This document shows, one piece after another, positions 3,671 through 9,739 of a stretch of 64,000 nucleotides of DNA. The stretch's first letter is position 1; each line of letters opens with the position of its first letter. Position numbers and translations under genes: made by a program. The notes under the pieces are model-generated. The model searched no databases. It had not been told where the DNA came from and worked only from the letters and a program-made list of their open reading frames with translations. Source of the DNA: an uncultured Erythrobacter sp. (lineage in GTDB: Bacteria; Pseudomonadota; Alphaproteobacteria; Sphingomonadales; Sphingomonadaceae); assembly GCA_947488085.1 (NCBI GenBank), contig CANKYI010000001.1:1247928-1311927 (forward strand). The letters run 5' to 3'.

Positions 3671-4420
3671 TCACACACCGAATAGCAACCGCAGACCGAC
3701 CACGCTGACTAATGCGGCGGTCAGCCATCTGATCCATTTGAGCGGCAGGAAACGAACCGCCATCAGGCTTCCGATCTGTCCGCCGACTGCGACTGCGATG
3801 AGCAGCGGCAACGCTTCGACCATTGCGCCGCCAAACATCGCCGGGCCGTGCTTCAACAACTGTCCGGCAAGGCCAAAGGCCGAGTTGATCAGGATGAAAA
3901 AACTCGCTGTGGCCGCAATCGCACGCGCATCGTGCCAGCGCGTCAGGTGAAGCAACGGCGCAAGGAATATCCCCCCGCCTATGCCAACCAATCCAGCGAG
4001 AAAGCCGATCGGCGCTGCGACGAATGGCAGCGCTTTGGCTGATTTGGCAGGTTTTGCCTGAGCTGCCTCAGCAACCGAGATCAGCATCGTGATGCCGGTC
4101 AAAACCAAGCTCGCACCCAGCAACAGCATGAAGGCCTGACGATCAATCATGATCAGTCCGCCCACAAAAGCCGCTGGCGCAGCGAGTGCAGTCAGGATCA
4201 GAGCACTTCGCCAGGGAGTCACACCAGCGCGGGCGAACCGCACCGTCGCTCCGGCTACAACAACGATATTACAGGCCAGCGCAACCATCGGCAGGACCCG
4301 GTAATCGAGGCCCGAAATCGCCAGCAGGGCCGCGTAAGTCGATCCTCCGCCAAAGCCGACACTCGCATAAAGCAGCGCGGCAGCGAAGAACCCCAATGCC
4401 AGCGCTGCGATCAGCGGCAT
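3671..4420 (-). CDS. Sulfite exporter TauE/SafE family membrane protein
   Basis: Duplicated G-x-GGG motifs (SVGFGGG, LVGIGGG) and about 8 TM segments. Confidence 0.88.
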   Translation of the reverse strand: MPLIAALALGFFAAALLYASVGFGGGSTYAALLAISGLDYRVLPMVALACNIVVVAGATVRFARAGVTPWRSALILTALAAPAAFVGGLIMIDRQAFMLLLGASLVLTGITMLISVAEAAQAKPAKSAKALPFVAAPIGFLAGLVGIGGGIFLAPLLHLTRWHDARAIAATASFFILINSAFGLAGQLLKHGPAMFGGAMVEALPLLIAVAVGGQIGSLMAVRFLPLKWIRWLTAALVSVVGLRLLFGV

Positions 4421-4454: not shown

Positions 4455-7217
4455 TCACGCCGTTTGGCGCGCGCCTGCTGCCCCGTGGCAATGCTTGTAT
4501 TTGCTGCCTGAACCGCATGGGCACGGCGCATTGCGACTGACTTCGAGGTTAGCATAGGGGTTATCGGTGTTCGCCCCGCCCGGCCCCGACGCAGCGCGCG
4601 GACTTCCGGCAAGCGAACCGAACAATTCGGGTCGTTCCGCTGATCCATCGCCATCGGCAGAATTGTCGAGCCCGGTCAACGGATCGATATGGCCGGTCAG
4701 GAAATCGGGCAAATCGGGCAACGCCTCTGTTTCCGGCTGAGCGATGCGAAGTTCGGATTTGAAGAGCAGCTTGGTCACTTCCTCACGCAAAGTGTCCAGC
4801 ATCGATTCAAACAAACCAAACGCCTCTTGCTTATATTCGTTGATAGGCTGTTTCTGCGCGATCCCACGCATCCAGATTACCTGACGCAGCGCATCAAGAG
4901 TGGCCAAATGCTCTTTCCAATGGAAATCGAGCTGACGAAGCAGAATGTCTTTTTCCACCAGACGCCAGATTCCAGGATCATTCTTAGCCATCTTGGCTTC
5001 CATCATCTCGTCGGTCTGAGCACGGATGCGCTCTTCGAAGATTTCCTGATCAACCTCATCTTCTTCCAACCAGTCATCGATGGGCGGCGCTATGCCAAAG
5101 ACGGTGTCGAGTTTTTCCTTGAGTCCGGCAATATCCCATTGTTCGGGATAGGAACCGGGAGGGCAATTTGTGGCGATGATCGAATTGATCGTATCGTGGC
5201 GCATGTCGACGGTTACATCATCGACCGCTTCGCTATCCATAATCTCTGCGCGCTGTTCGTAGATCACCTTGCGCTGGTCATTCATTACATCGTCGTATTG
5301 CACGACCTGTTTACGCGTATCGTAATTGCGCGATTCCACTTTTTTCTGAGCTGTTTCAATGGCTTTTGACAGCCACTTGGACCCGATCGCCTCGCCATCT
5401 TCAAGGTTTGAGTTCATCATCTTAGAGAACAAAGTGTCGGGACCAAAGATGCGCAAAAGGTCATCTTCAAGGCACAGATAGAACCGCGAAAGACCCGGAT
5501 CACCCTGACGGCCAGAGCGCCCGCGCAGCTGGTTATCGATCCGGCGCGATTCGTGGCGTTCAGTGCCCAAAACGAACAGGCCGCCCGCTTCCAGAACTTT
5601 CGCCTTCTCCGCTGCGGTCTCTTCTTTGATCTTGGCAATGGCAGCCTCTTTCGCAGGGCCTTCCTCCATCGCGCCACATTCATCTTCGATGCGGAATTCA
5701 AGGTTGCCGCCCAGTTGAATATCGGTCCCGCGACCCGCCATATTGGTGGCAATAGTCACCGCGCCAATGCGCCCGGCCTGCGCCACAATATGCGCTTCAC
5801 GTTCGTGTTGACGCGCGTTGAGGACTTCGTGCTTCACGCCCTCTTTATCGAGGAACTGGCTTAGCAACTCGGACTTTTCGATGGAGACCGTGCCGACCAG
5901 AATGGGCTGACCGATTTCGTTCTTTTCACGGATGGCTTTTGCGATGGCTTGGAATTTGTCCATCGTGTTTTTGTAAAATTCGTCTTCCTCATCGACCCGA
6001 CTGACGGGCAGGTTGGTTGGGATTTCAACGACATTGACCTTATAAATGTCCCAGAATTCCGACGCTTCCGTCGCCGCCGTCCCGGTCATGCCGGACAGTT
6101 TGGGATACATGCGGAAGTAGTTCTGGAACGTGATTGAGGCCATCGTCTGGTTCTCAGGCTCAATCTTTACGCCTTCCTTGGCTTCCACCGCCTGGTGCAG
6201 ACCATTGGACCAGCGTCGCCCGTCCATCATCCGCCCGGTAAACTCATCGATGATCACGATCTTGTCATCTTTGACAATGTAGTGATCGTCGCGTTTGAAC
6301 ATGTGCACCGCTTTGAGTGCCTGATCGAGATGATGAACAACCTGCGTGTTTTCAACGTCGTAGAGGTTCTCTGTCTCTAGCAATCCCTTCTCGATCAGGA
6401 TCGCTTCGACCTTGTCCAATCCATCTTCGTTGAGCTGGATGTTCTTGGTCTTCTCATCCTTATCATACCAGTCTTCAGGGATCTCTTTGGCGACCTCGTC
6501 AAGCTTGGCATACAGGTCCGATTTATCCTCGGTCGGGCCGGAAATAATCAACGGCGTGCGGGCTTCGTCAATCAGGATCGAGTCGACCTCATCAACGATG
6601 GAAAAGTTAAAAGGGCGTTGCACCATGGCGCCGCGATCGTGCTTCATATTATCGCGCAGATAATCGAAACCGAATTCGTTATTGGTGCCGTATGTGATGT
6701 CGGAATTGTACGCGTCGCGCTTATCCAATTCTTCCATATTGGGGACGATCACACCGACACTCAGGCCCAGCCAATTGTAAAGCTGTCCCATCCACTCCGC
6801 ATCGCGGCGAGCGAGGTAGTCATTGACGGTCACGACGTGCACGCCCTTGCCCTCAATCCCGTTGAGATAAACCGCGAGCGTCGCCATCAGCGTCTTACCC
6901 TCGCCCGTGCGCATCTCTGCGATCTCACCACGATGTAGGACGATGCCACCAATCAGCTGGACATCGAAATGGCGCATCCCAAACACGCGCGTCGACGCCT
7001 CGCGAACAGTGGCGAACGCCTCGGGCATGATGTCATCGAGAGTGGAGCCGCTATCGAGCTGTTCACGAAACTTGTCAGTTTGCGCTTTCAAAGCGTCATC
7101 AGACAGCCCTTGCATCATCGGCTCTAGCGCGTTGATTTTATCAACCTGTTTGCCGAGCGTTTTGATGTAACGGTCATTGGATGAACCGAAGACGGATTTG
7201 ACGAGTTTATCGAACAT
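4455..7217 (-). CDS. secA: Preprotein translocase ATPase SecA
   Basis: [27 protein letters not shown] and [11 protein letters not shown] motifs; C-terminal SEC-C motif ([13 protein letters not shown]). Confidence 0.99.
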
Positions 7218-7224
7218 GGAAGAA

Positions 7225-7352
7225 GCGGCCTTTGGATGGTCTTGTCGATGCGGGCCCGCATTTCGTGCGGGCTCGTATGAAATCTGAAAATGTGATGATG
7301 TTCGCGCGGCGGACCGCCTGCGCGTAACAGGGGAGAAGGAGTTTTAGGCCGC
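7225..7352 (-). promoter_or_regulatory. Predicted SD-sequestering mRNA structure between the leader ORF and secA
   Basis: On the mRNA, GCGGCCU (7352-7346, 1 nt after the leader stop) is the exact complement of AGGCCGC (7231-7225), which overlaps the putative SD AAAGG (7233-7229). Internal hairpins at about 7254-7272 and 7303-7324. Confidence 0.6.
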
Positions 7353-7353
7353 G

Positions 7354-7629
7354 CTACTCGTGCGCGCGCTCAACACCCATCACCAGTGGTGCACGGAGCG
7401 ATCTCGGCGCAGAAACAGCGTTCCGCTGACTGCGCGTATCGTTGCTGCGAGCTTTTGATTTAGCAAGCCTTTTGGCCCGGTATTCACGCGTTTCTGCACC
7501 ACAATCATTGCTGGCCGATTGGCTGGCATCGACGCTAGATGCAGGCGTCGAAAATGACGCATTTGCAGGAGCGCTAAGAGCAGCGAGGCCTGAAAGCAGG
7601 GCCAGAAGGGCAAACAGTTTGCGCGTCAT
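7354..7629 (-). CDS. Small exported protein upstream of secA; candidate secretion-monitor leader peptide
   Basis: 91 aa, clear Sec signal peptide (MTRKLFALLALLSGLAALSAPANA), basic polar body, ends RAPLVMGVERAHE*. Co-oriented, 136 nt upstream of secA. Confidence 0.7.
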   Translation of the reverse strand: MTRKLFALLALLSGLAALSAPANASFSTPASSVDASQSASNDCGAETREYRAKRLAKSKARSNDTRSQRNAVSAPRSLRAPLVMGVERAHE

Positions 7630-7711
7630 CCTGTCTCAAATAGTGGCAAAGCGCCGCCGCGTCCACCGTGGAGCCACGGATAAGTACGCAAAGTTAGCGC
7701 GTGTTCCCCGC

Positions 7712-8425
7712 CTATTCCTCCAAATCGCTAACAACGACAATAATTGACAGGTTCACGCGCTTGCTCACCGGGTTGCCGTTCGCGTCGCGAAATGGTGCCT
7801 GAGCAGGGCGATTTATGCCGGGGCATGGCTCTTCCTCCATAGTCCGACGCATCCCTTGACTGATCTCACCTGACACTTCGATAACTTCGCAATCGGTTGC
7901 CTTGCCCATTGCAGTGAGTGTGTACTCGACATTGATCGTGGCAGTGCCGGGGAACTCCGGCTCGCGCTTGGTCCAGACCTGATGATCCCGGTGTTCACCC
8001 GCCATCCGACTGCCGTCCCGATCAATCGCTGGCCGGAATTGTGCGCGCGCGAGCGCGATTTCGCAGGTCTTCGCGTCGAGCAACTCGGAGCCAGAGGTTT
8101 CCAAAACCGTACAATCGGTCACGTCGCCTTCGGCATCGACAGCAAGGCTGTAATAGACCGAGCCCTCTTCATCTGCGACCCATGCTTCGGGTGGATAGTC
8201 ATCTGGCCTTGCCTGAAGAGTGCTGAAGTCGATCAGTTCTGGATTTGGAGAATAGACCAATTCCTGCGCAGGCCGTTGAATTTGAACAACCGCGGGAGGC
8301 GCTGCTGCTGCTGCTTCCGCTGCCTCGGTGGCGGCCTCCACCGCATCTTGTACAACGTCCTGTGCGATGAGCGGCGCTGCCATGCACATGCTGACAAGCC
8401 CGAATGTTTGGAGAGTTTTGTTCAT
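7712..8425 (-). CDS. TonB C-terminal-like domain protein with two tandem domains
   Basis: Signal peptide, YPPEAW...EGSV, V-DAEG-V-DC...SG-ELLD-KTC and F-PA-D-DG motifs, followed by a second similar repeat. Start moved to ATG 8425 (SD GGGGAG). Confidence 0.75.
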   Translation of the reverse strand: MNKTLQTFGLVSMCMAAPLIAQDVVQDAVEAATEAAEAAAAAPPAVVQIQRPAQELVYSPNPELIDFSTLQARPDDYPPEAWVADEEGSVYYSLAVDAEGDVTDCTVLETSGSELLDAKTCEIALARAQFRPAIDRDGSRMAGEHRDHQVWTKREPEFPGTATINVEYTLTAMGKATDCEVIEVSGEISQGMRRTMEEEPCPGINRPAQAPFRDANGNPVSKRVNLSIIVVVSDLEE

Positions 8426-8512
8426 GCTCTCCCCCTTAACCCCAAACACCTTAATGCAAAACAACCCAGCTCCAATTGCAGCGCATCGCGAACCCTATTA
8501 CGGCGCATGATC

Positions 8513-9739
8513 ATGGAACTGACGCAATCTCCCCTTGCCCGCCCTTTTCCCGAAATGACCGACATTGCCGGGGTGACGCTGCGAGTGTCGCGAGCGCGGT
8601 ACAAAGATTGGGACCGAGCTGATCTAACCTTTATCGAGGTCGACGAAGGCACTGCGGTAGCAGGCGTCTTCACCCAAAGCGCCTGTGCATCATCCGAGGT
8701 TGAACTTGGCCGCGAGCAGGTTGCGAGCGGCAGTGCACGCGCGCTGATCGTGAATGCGGGCAATTCAAACGCTTTTACCGGATATCGCGGTCTTGAGGCG
8801 GTCCAGGCCATTCAGGCGCAAGTGAGCGAGTCACTAGGCTGTAAACCCAAGGATGTGCTGGTCTCATCAACCGGCGTGATCGGTGTGCCATTACCCCAGG
8901 ATAAGGCGCGCGAGGGAGTGGAGGCCGCTTTGACAGCCACGCCATGCAGTTGGGAAGACGCCGCTTCGGCGATCACCACCACCGATACATTTGCAAAAGG
9001 TGCGCGAACCTCCGCGATGATTGCTGATGCTCGGGTGGAGTTGGTCGGGATCATCAAAGGCTCTGGCATGATCGCGCCGGATATGGCGACGATGCTTGGC
9101 TATATCTTCACCGATGCGAACATCGAACCTGCGTTCCTGCAAGAGCTGCTGAACCGGGCAAACTTGCAGAGTTTTAGCTGCATCACCGTTGATGGTGACA
9201 CTTCGACCAGCGACACGGTCTTAGCCTTCGCCACAGGCAAAGCGGATCATACGCTGATCACTGGATGGGATAGCCCCGGCGCCGATGCTTTTGCAGCCGC
9301 GCTTTGCGACATGTGCAACCGGCTTGCCCAGTTGGTCGTACGCGATGGCGAGGGAGCAACGAAATTCATCACCATACGCGTTTCGGGTGCAGTCAGTGAT
9401 GAAAGCGCGCGGCGTATCGGCCTCAGCGTTGCAAACTCACCGCTCGTCAAAACCGCGATTGCAGGCGAAGACGCCAATTGGGGGCGCGTCGTGATGGCCG
9501 TTGGTAAAGCAGGTGAGCCGGCAAACCGCGACAAGCTCTCCATCGCATTCGGCGGCGTTTGGGCTGCACGTGATGGCCTGCCGGTTGATGACTACGACGA
9601 GGCTCCCGTCGCCAAGCATCTGCAAGGTCAGGAGATAGACCTCGCGGTAGAATTGGGTATGGGCGAAGGCATCGCGCGGGTTTGGACATGCGACCTCACC
9701 CACGGCTATATCTCGATCAACGCGGATTATCGCTCATGA
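8513..9739 (+). CDS. argJ: Bifunctional glutamate N-acetyltransferase/amino-acid acetyltransferase ArgJ
   Basis: AGVFT, NAGNSNAFTG, STGVIG, KGSGMIAPDMATML, DTSTSDT and WTCDLTHGYISINADYRS motifs. Start refined from the 585-aa track ORF. Confidence 0.97.
   Translation: MELTQSPLARPFPEMTDIAGVTLRVSRARYKDWDRADLTFIEVDEGTAVAGVFTQSACASSEVELGREQVASGSARALIVNAGNSNAFTGYRGLEAVQAIQAQVSESLGCKPKDVLVSSTGVIGVPLPQDKAREGVEAALTATPCSWEDAASAITTTDTFAKGARTSAMIADARVELVGIIKGSGMIAPDMATMLGYIFTDANIEPAFLQELLNRANLQSFSCITVDGDTSTSDTVLAFATGKADHTLITGWDSPGADAFAAALCDMCNRLAQLVVRDGEGATKFITIRVSGAVSDESARRIGLSVANSPLVKTAIAGEDANWGRVVMAVGKAGEPANRDKLSIAFGGVWAARDGLPVDDYDEAPVAKHLQGQEIDLAVELGMGEGIARVWTCDLTHGYISINADYRS

Follow-up and report, generated by a model that had tools for sequence, protein, structure and literature searches.

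Gene organization at the secA locus

The stretch of DNA analysed here (the window, 64,000 nucleotides (nt) of contig CANKYI010000001.1 from an uncultured Erythrobacter sp.) contains, on its minus strand, the secA gene preceded by a small upstream open reading frame (uORF), which is the subject of this work. Bacterial protein export depends on SecA as its essential motor. The uORF product is MTRKLFALLALLSGLAALSAPANASFST...SLRAPLVMGVERAHE, with the C-terminal end ...SAPRSLRAPLVMGVERAHE-TAG. A preliminary description of this DNA had proposed a SecM-like leader that controls secA, encoded by a signal-bearing open reading frame (ORF) of 91 amino acids (aa) located 136 nt upstream of secA on the same strand; these positions are confirmed (7629..7354, with the gap at 7353..7218). 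The main features of the locus, in the order in which they would be transcribed, are:

7354..7629, minus strand: leader ORF (uORF), 91 aa plus TAG, a candidate secretion-monitor peptide (ORF calling, ATG at 7629)
7558..7629, minus strand: Sec-type signal peptide, residues 1–24 (MTRK / LFALLALLSGLAAL / SAPANA), predicted to be cleaved after ANA (conservation, layout)
7357..7404, minus strand: conserved C-terminal 16 residues (PRSLRAPLVMGVERAHE tail), the candidate arrest motif (family logo)
7354..7356, minus strand: UAG stop straight after the conserved Glu (family stop counts)
7218..7353, minus strand: spacer between the uORF and secA, 136 nt, C 51 / G 29 on the messenger RNA (mRNA) strand (composition)
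4455..7217, minus strand: secA, 920 aa (ATG at 7217; identity to other loci)

Over its first 400 residues the secA product is 66–87% identical to the product of the downstream gene at other Sphingomonadales loci; for loci of the same genus, identity was compared over the first ~90 residues (67–86%).

The uORF family in Sphingomonadaceae

When 151 genomes of Sphingomonadaceae were searched in six frames, the uORF gave weak full-length matches, and 28 of the 30 best lie directly 5′ of secA on the same strand. The profile derived from them (A1) matched strongly in 87 further Sphingomonadaceae genomes and, in other families of the order, gave partial, signal-like matches only. By inspection, most secA upstream regions of the genomes missed by the profile hold a diverged leader, for example Sphingomonas-like forms ending RRRE-TAG. 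All 15 additional species of the window's genus that were compared carry the uORF before secA. A broader profile (A4) gave no full-length match outside Sphingomonadaceae in 400 other alphaproteobacterial genomes, the only matches there being partial and signal-peptide-like. The resulting ortholog set consists of 78 non-identical uORF-secA loci of Sphingomonadaceae, with some tests run on 63 of them; these 78 sequences are mutually related, so the counts given below overstate their independence. The distance from the uORF to secA is 80–148 nt across the loci.

No recognisable uORF precedes secA in five genera of Sphingomonadaceae (L060, L063, L073, L076 and L077) and in three other families of the order (L078–L080), so that, judged from these loci, the leader was lost or never acquired in some lineages. 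Locus L070 has a 90-aa signal-bearing ORF in the same place, with another tail (..VYRHDIILG-TAG). The diverged leaders of four Sphingomonas-like loci (L062, L071, L074 and L075) end in RRRE- or VRRE-stop, often use GTG or TTG starts and have a hydrophobic N-terminal segment without a clear basic n-region; the targeting mode of these leaders may be different.

None of the 196 homologs in the databases (E ≤ 0.001) has a Pfam domain or, with the exception of a stray UniRef label (“Ribosomal protein S27”), any name other than “hypothetical protein”. Searches of Pfam, NCBIfam and Rfam found no family for the uORF. The gene for a 91-residue exported peptide before secA is conserved across sphingomonads, and by its sequence looks like an undescribed secretion sensor.

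Architecture of the leader peptide

Comparison of orthologs, proposed in the preliminary description as a check, shows that both the signal peptide and the last residues are conserved across the 78 loci. The length of the peptide is nearly fixed (84–95 aa in 75 of the 78, mostly 87–92, with modes at 89–91). The signal peptide is the most conserved block of the N-terminal part and has, in the family, the classic Sec form M-(L)RR-LLACLALLTGLAA-GAPA.A, with a conserved n-h-c layout and A-x-A; G14 is the same in every sequence, and L15, A17, P21 and A24 show little or no variation, according to which alignment is used. The ~45 residues of the middle part are hypervariable and essentially unalignable. 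The tail then follows, with the logo [IV][YL]IP[TP]V.[FLM]G.DRA.E-stop in the 78 sequences. Counted back from the stop, the prevailing residues are P at −12 (52 sequences), V at −10 (53), G at −7 (60), D or E at −5 (75), R at −4 (75), A at −3 (68) and E at −1 (74). Averaged over sequence pairs, identity falls from 0.44 in the signal peptide to 0.14 in the middle and is back at 0.40 over the last 16 residues. A RAPP-like RAPL in the window's peptide had also been put forward as a possible stalling motif; it is not conserved, being replaced by RMPV, RLPV or RPPI in congeners and by IPTV in other genera. As regards the proposed SecM-like leader, a conserved exported peptide with about 16 conserved last residues holds, while RAPL and the RNA helix that was to act as its switch (see below) do not.

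Across codon positions 1, 2 and 3, the tail has entropies of 1.23, 0.89 and 1.37 and the signal peptide has 1.21, 0.96 and 1.57, against a flat 1.8 past the stop; synonymous codons vary within the conserved tail. Because the entropy follows the codon positions, selection acts on the uORF protein. An AlphaFold2 model (71 homologs) has a predicted template modelling score of 0.25, and only the signal helix (residues 3–18) is confident, with predicted local distance difference test values of ~80–87. A peptide acting as a nascent chain would be expected to have a fixed length and to lack a fold, as is seen here.

Four sequence criteria for substrates that monitor Sec or YidC are given in PMC10987492 (screen criteria of Sakiyama 2021 and Fujiwara 2024), and the uORF agrees with all four as worded there. 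It is a small ORF without annotated function directly 5′ of secA on the same strand; an N-terminal secretion signal is indicated by the conserved n-h-c/A-x-A layout and the confident model helix; the C-terminus is conserved among homologs (78-sequence logo; identity 0.40 vs 0.14); and ~66 residues follow the signal peptide, which exceeds the spacer of more than 30 residues asked for. Judged by its sequence, the uORF product has the build of a Sec-monitoring arrest peptide.

Selection on the stop codon

The family stops comprise 68 TAG, 10 TAA and no TGA (n = 78). In the long ORFs that serve as genome background, TGA makes up 46%, TAA 32% and TAG 22%. The TAA variants have arisen in several lineages, which puts TGA one transition away, yet TGA is absent. 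TAG and TAA are read by release factor 1 (RF1), and TGA by release factor 2 (RF2) only. On these counts, the type of the stop codon is under selection. The junction of the conserved Glu with the stop and the avoidance of TGA are together what would be expected if termination itself were regulated, and are not a proof of it.

Predicted promoter and transcription unit

Alignment of the regions upstream of the uORF reveals a shared motif, GTGGAC-N17-CTATCT; 48 of the 63 loci agree with it at no fewer than 9 of its 12 positions. The promoter spacer is 17 nt in 45 of these 48, and the distance from the end of the −10 element to the start codon is 7–10 nt in 43. The corresponding elements in the window are:

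7661..7666, minus strand: −35 element GTGGAC of the predicted uORF-secA promoter (family motif; family-matrix score 18.2 bits in the window)
7638..7643, minus strand: −10 element CTATTT, ending 8 nt before the uORF ATG (family motif)

A generic sigma-70 promoter scan found nothing ahead of the uORF and missed the family motif. No Shine–Dalgarno (SD) sequence is present in front of the uORF ATG. Given this absence and the 7–10 nt between the −10 element and the ATG, the uORF mRNA is probably leaderless or nearly so, the start site being placed by the predicted promoter. An independent secA promoter in the gap had been named beforehand as an observation that would speak against a secA leader. 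A scan of the last 120 nt of the uORF and the spacer with the family matrix found no comparable promoter, other promoter types remaining possible: the mean best score there is 0.6 (−1.7 in the window), compared with 1.4 in a control inside secA and a median of 17.6 at the true sites. On this limited matrix test, secA appears to be without a promoter of the uORF type of its own in the gap. An AU-rich, CATATAA-like element after the central hairpin of the spacer was considered as a second promoter and rejected, as it has no −35 partner and its matrix scores equal those of the control.

RNA features around the stop and in the spacer

Local folding of the window predicts a hairpin over the stop codon and two in the spacer, the latter two having been proposed in the preliminary description and now confirmed by folding (7323-7304 and 7272-7254):

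7348..7369, minus strand: hairpin H1, in which the Arg-Ala codons pair with the bases just past the stop and Glu-UAG is in the loop (local fold −11.4 kcal/mol)
7304..7323, minus strand: GC-rich spacer hairpin A (GCGCAGGCGGUCCGCCGCGC; −11.5 kcal/mol)
7254..7272, minus strand: GC-rich spacer hairpin B (GCCCGCACGAAAUGCGGGC), without a U-tract after it (folding)

The loop of H1 has the family form (N)GAAUAG. The mean free energy of H1 is −8.9 kcal/mol vs −5.9 with unrelated post-stop sequences, and 18% of the loci reach p < 0.05. The wobble base of the Ala codon and the base directly after the stop vary together (GCC occurs with G, GCG with C; Fisher p = 0.004). If the register is held fixed, 56% of the cells pair, and the covariation score of 0.152 (vs 0.123) was reached by 13 of 500 shuffles. 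H1 is weak or absent in several genera that keep the peptide motif. The support for H1 is modest. A reading of the UUCGAAU loop as a T-loop mimic was dropped, since this loop requires Phe at the variable codon.

One or two GC-rich hairpins lie in the middle of the spacer in nearly all orthologs, with a mean free energy of −12.6 kcal/mol, and end ~42 nt before the secA ATG. The central hairpin was rejected as an intrinsic terminator: the tail contains on average 2.2 U in 8 nt, and a scan for consensus terminators was negative. Only in one genus-level subgroup (L041, L043, L045, L051 and L054) is the central hairpin followed by 5–6 U in 8 nt; there, unlike in the window, the hairpin could be a weak intrinsic terminator or attenuator, as far as its sequence indicates. 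On the mRNA strand C exceeds G in all 78 spacers (C 36.6%, G 23.7%, mean skew +0.21), against a genome background skew of ~0 (standard deviation 0.14, measured on 100-nt regions before starts or after stops). The rho gene is present. The composition of the spacer is that of Rho-loading sites, which makes it rut-like in a test of composition only. Near the start of secA, most orthologs have a purine-rich element (CAAAGG, GAAAG or AGGA) ~10–17 nt 5′ of the ATG.

As for the neighbouring genes, the product of the one 5′ of the uORF (7712-8464, minus strand) is 250 aa long and contains a TonB C-terminal domain (Pfam PF03544, E = 9e-15). Similar TonB_C-like genes occupy this position in several other genera; elsewhere the uORF follows a divergently transcribed gene. 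A long ORF on the plus strand (7982-9739), divergent from the TonB-like gene, has a sequence (..GSGMIAPDMATMLGY..) that we take to be ArgJ-like (ornithine acetyltransferase). Immediately 3′ of secA and on the same strand is a gene for a TauE/SafE-family membrane protein (PF01925, E = 1e-28; 3671-4420, minus strand).

A possible stall at the stop codon of the leader

The gene, its synteny and conservation, its stop-codon bias, its promoter motif and the composition of its spacer are observed, and from them we infer a stall, its release by export and its coupling to secA. On balance, the evidence tips slightly towards an export-sensitive ribosome stall at or next to the uORF UAG that raises secA expression. 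In this mechanism, the uORF would be the first cistron of a uORF-secA transcript starting at, or within a few bases of, its ATG, and the function of the peptide would lie in its synthesis and not in a folded product. The signal peptide would leave the ribosome first; the variable middle of ~45 residues would serve as a mere spacer of fixed length; and the last ~16–23 residues (..IP.V..G.DRA.E) would be inside the exit tunnel when the ribosome reaches the UAG. There the tail would slow or block RF1-dependent release or the last peptide-bond step. Engagement by the Sec machinery would pull on the chain and relieve the stall, the dwell time at the stop thus reporting the export capacity, and a long-lived ribosome at the stop would lead to higher secA expression. 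Stalling at or near termination, as suggested in the preliminary description, fits the conserved Glu-stop junction and the stop restricted to TAG and TAA. The stall may instead occur during elongation one codon earlier, which would put Arg-Ala at −2 and −1 relative to the P-site residue, an arrangement shared with SecM and RAPP; this variant leaves the fixed Glu-stop junction unexplained.

Two kinds of coupling to secA can be envisaged. Across the family, the stalled ribosome would act as in tnaC and keep Rho off the C-rich, G-poor spacer, or would remodel the structure of the spacer; one of these two is the more probable coupling, and the TnaC-like route is plausible from the composition. In the window species only, unmasking of the secA SD is a possible route, whereby the stalled ribosome would cover the segment GCGGCCU, otherwise paired with the secA SD region. 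A more specific form of the proposal, which we put forward only tentatively and regard as rather doubtful, is that the ..G.DRA.E tail blocks RF1 release at UAG or UAA until Sec pulls on the chain, the parked ribosome guarding the rut-like spacer from Rho without any SD stem. In this form, the stop would never be UGA because the tail specifically blocks RF1-mediated release.

The pairing with the SD region had been the centre of the preliminary description, which noted that GCGGCCU (7352-7346), 1 nt past the UAG, is the exact complement of AGGCCGC (7231-7225), overlapping AAAGG (7233-7229). This is correct for the window, where the two arms are:

7346..7352, minus strand: GCGGCCU, 5′ arm of the long-range helix, overlapping the 3′ arm of H1 (folding)
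7225..7233, minus strand: AAAGGCCGC, containing the SD-like AAAGG (7229-7233) and the 3′ arm AGGCCGC (7225-7231) of this species-specific helix

The helix of 7 base pairs (bp) is present in both the minimum free energy (MFE) and the centroid structures (ViennaRNA); the duplex has −15.7 kcal/mol vs a shuffle mean of −5.8 (p ~0.005–0.01), and the region overall folds only modestly better than shuffles (z = −1.8). When the footprint of a ribosome at the stop is blocked, the predicted accessibility of the SD rises from 0.43 to 0.68. Helices of the significance seen in the window would be expected by chance about 4 times in 78 orthologous spacers, and about as many are seen; analogous pairings occur in a few unrelated orthologs (L029, L055 and L061). 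Significant complementarity of this kind is found in 1 of 15 congeners, and the closest relative sampled in the same genus (L002) is without the pairing. From MAFFT alignments of the uORF end, the spacer and the secA start (45 and 26 sequences), RNAalifold derived no consensus that could be used, because the spacers are too divergent.

Several results weigh against a stall that controls secA in the way proposed. Of 63 orthologs, 6% show complementarity at p < 0.05 between the 16 post-stop nt and the initiation region of secA, as many as expected by chance; with the footprint at the stop blocked, the family mean of SD accessibility goes from 0.50 to 0.51, with 9 loci up and 9 down; the post-stop segment has no partner anywhere downstream above chance (5% at p < 0.05, median p 0.43); and no conserved SD-sequestering structure was found across the orthologs. 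Protection from Rho would be partial, as a ribosome stalled at the stop covers only ~15 nt of the spacer. The tail matches no arrest motif known to work. Finally, Arg is encoded by CGC in 95% of cases and Glu by GAA in 86%, vs 49% and 53% in the background, and from this over-use it follows that part of the conservation of the end is at the RNA level.

Alternative explanations

The uORF product could be a small periplasmic peptide of the ordinary kind that has its own function, such as a ligand recognised by a periplasmic partner through its conserved C-terminus, and the gene could merely be co-transcribed with secA, with no regulatory stall. A cleavable signal peptide and a conserved C-terminus would suit such a product, many members contain several Cys and basic residues, and no SD-sequestering helix is conserved. 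We nevertheless find it unlikely: the mature part is hypervariable (identity 0.14) and without a predicted fold and yet has a fixed length, the gene is always tied to secA at 80–148 nt, and the selection on the stop type (TGA in 0 of 78) is left unexplained.

Regulation might also take place without a peptide-specific arrest, translation of the leaderless uORF and its termination setting the access of Rho, the spacer hairpins or the stability of the mRNA; the conserved end would then consist of RNA elements (H1 and its GAAUAG loop) more than of peptide. The enrichment of H1 with some covariation, the over-use of CGC and GAA, the C-rich spacer at every locus and the conserved GC hairpin argue for this explanation. 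Residues −12, −10 and −7, however, are outside H1 and are conserved through varying codons, H1 is weak or missing in several genera that retain the peptide motif, and the conserved signal peptide would have no role, all of which makes an arrest-free mechanism improbable.

Pairing of the post-stop segment with the secA SD, melted by a ribosome at the stop, is very improbable as a general mechanism: the perfect helix of the window, its gain in SD accessibility and the analogous pairings at three other loci stand against chance-level frequencies in orthologs and congeners, the unpaired closest relative and the absence of a mean accessibility gain. On these comparisons, the helix is a recent addition in the window species or a coincidence, and is ruled out as the mechanism of the family. 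A stall of the leader peptide at or next to its stop remains the reading that we prefer.

Comparison with known monitoring systems

To our knowledge, the matching of SecA level to demand is understood mechanistically only for SecM-type leaders in a few lineages. SecM, found in secM-secA of Enterobacterales and relatives, is a protein of ~170 aa with the motif FxxxxWIxxxxGIRAGP, which causes an elongation stall at RAG/P four codons before the stop. Like SecM, the uORF encodes a predicted exported leader directly 5′ of secA on one transcript, with a signal, a non-conserved spacer and a conserved Arg-Ala C-terminal segment for the tunnel, and the proposed logic is the same, slow export giving a longer stall and more SecA. 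Unlike SecM, it has a conserved terminal Glu, a selected stop type and an apparently leaderless start; it shows no homology to SecM in sequence, matches nothing in Pfam or NCBIfam and does not contain the SecM motif. The SD-sequestering stem that defines SecM is not conserved among the 63 orthologs and 15 congeners, being predicted in the window species only.

A second parallel is TnaC, the leader of the E. coli tna operon, which blocks the release factor and so halts the ribosome at the stop codon of the leader itself, where the ribosome masks an adjacent rut site from Rho. TnaC senses free tryptophan, uses UGA and RF2, has 24 aa and is not exported. At the uORF loci, too, C-rich, G-poor RNA starts next to the leader stop (78 of 78) and rho is present, a likeness of composition only; the uORF product differs in being exported (as predicted), in its RF1-type stops and in its 91 aa.

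With ApdP and the RAPP-type peptides the uORF shares the class Alphaproteobacteria and the combination of a targeting signal with a C-terminal segment containing Arg-Ala. It differs from ApdP, which lies upstream of secDF2, and from the RAPP-type ApdA, ApcA and RQH in lacking a conserved R/Q/H-A/G-P-P, RAPP, RAPG, RAGP or RGPP and in its downstream gene. No ApdP-like or other signal-bearing uORF was found before the single yajC-secD-secF operon of this genome, which lies outside the window (G000 C1:1464000-1469500). Upstream of that operon there is an apparent transfer RNA gene, recognised from the translation of a shadow ORF.

The closest likeness in the position of the motif is to the stop-dependent monitors of PMC10987492, signal-bearing uORFs of sec genes with a motif that abuts the stop, for which toeprinting showed a stall with the stop in the A site; one of them, uA_NSP-stop, also precedes secA. 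The signal and the conserved motif abutting the stop are common to both groups. The monitors of PMC10987492 occur in Bacteroidota or Firmicutes and have Pro or Lys as their last residue, whereas the uORF family belongs to Sphingomonadaceae and ends in DRA.E; a stop restricted to TAG and TAA is not among the properties given for those monitors in the accessible text. A conserved Pro just before the stop, which characterises the stop-abutting family, is absent from the uORF family, with Glu last in 74 of 78; the trait shared is that the motif abuts the stop. The uORF family does not figure in the accessible part of this 2024 domain-wide screen of 30,000 genomes, which recorded many arrest peptides and where Sphingomonadales appear only in the genome list, and the 2021 screen (Sakiyama) does not mention Sphingomonadales. 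Later papers describe other arrest-peptide families, LudP and CliM. A search of the available literature found no paper linking arrest peptides with Sphingomonadales, in agreement with the preliminary description, which knew of no monitor of such a type in this order.

The unusual points of the family, as read from its sequences, are the Glu-stop tail, the stop read by RF1 only, the apparently leaderless start and the C-rich spacer. If the proposed mechanism is correct, a widespread “hypothetical protein” of marine and soil Sphingomonadaceae would be accounted for, and a new arrest sequence ending in Glu-stop would be defined. The identity of the release factor (RF1 only) would then apparently be a part of the sensor, and the output would possibly be based on Rho in place of SD unmasking. 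In the more specific form, with the RF1 block and protection from Rho, the uORF family would be a new class of secretion monitor and the first secA monitor in Alphaproteobacteria, joining the sensing of SecM with the output of TnaC.

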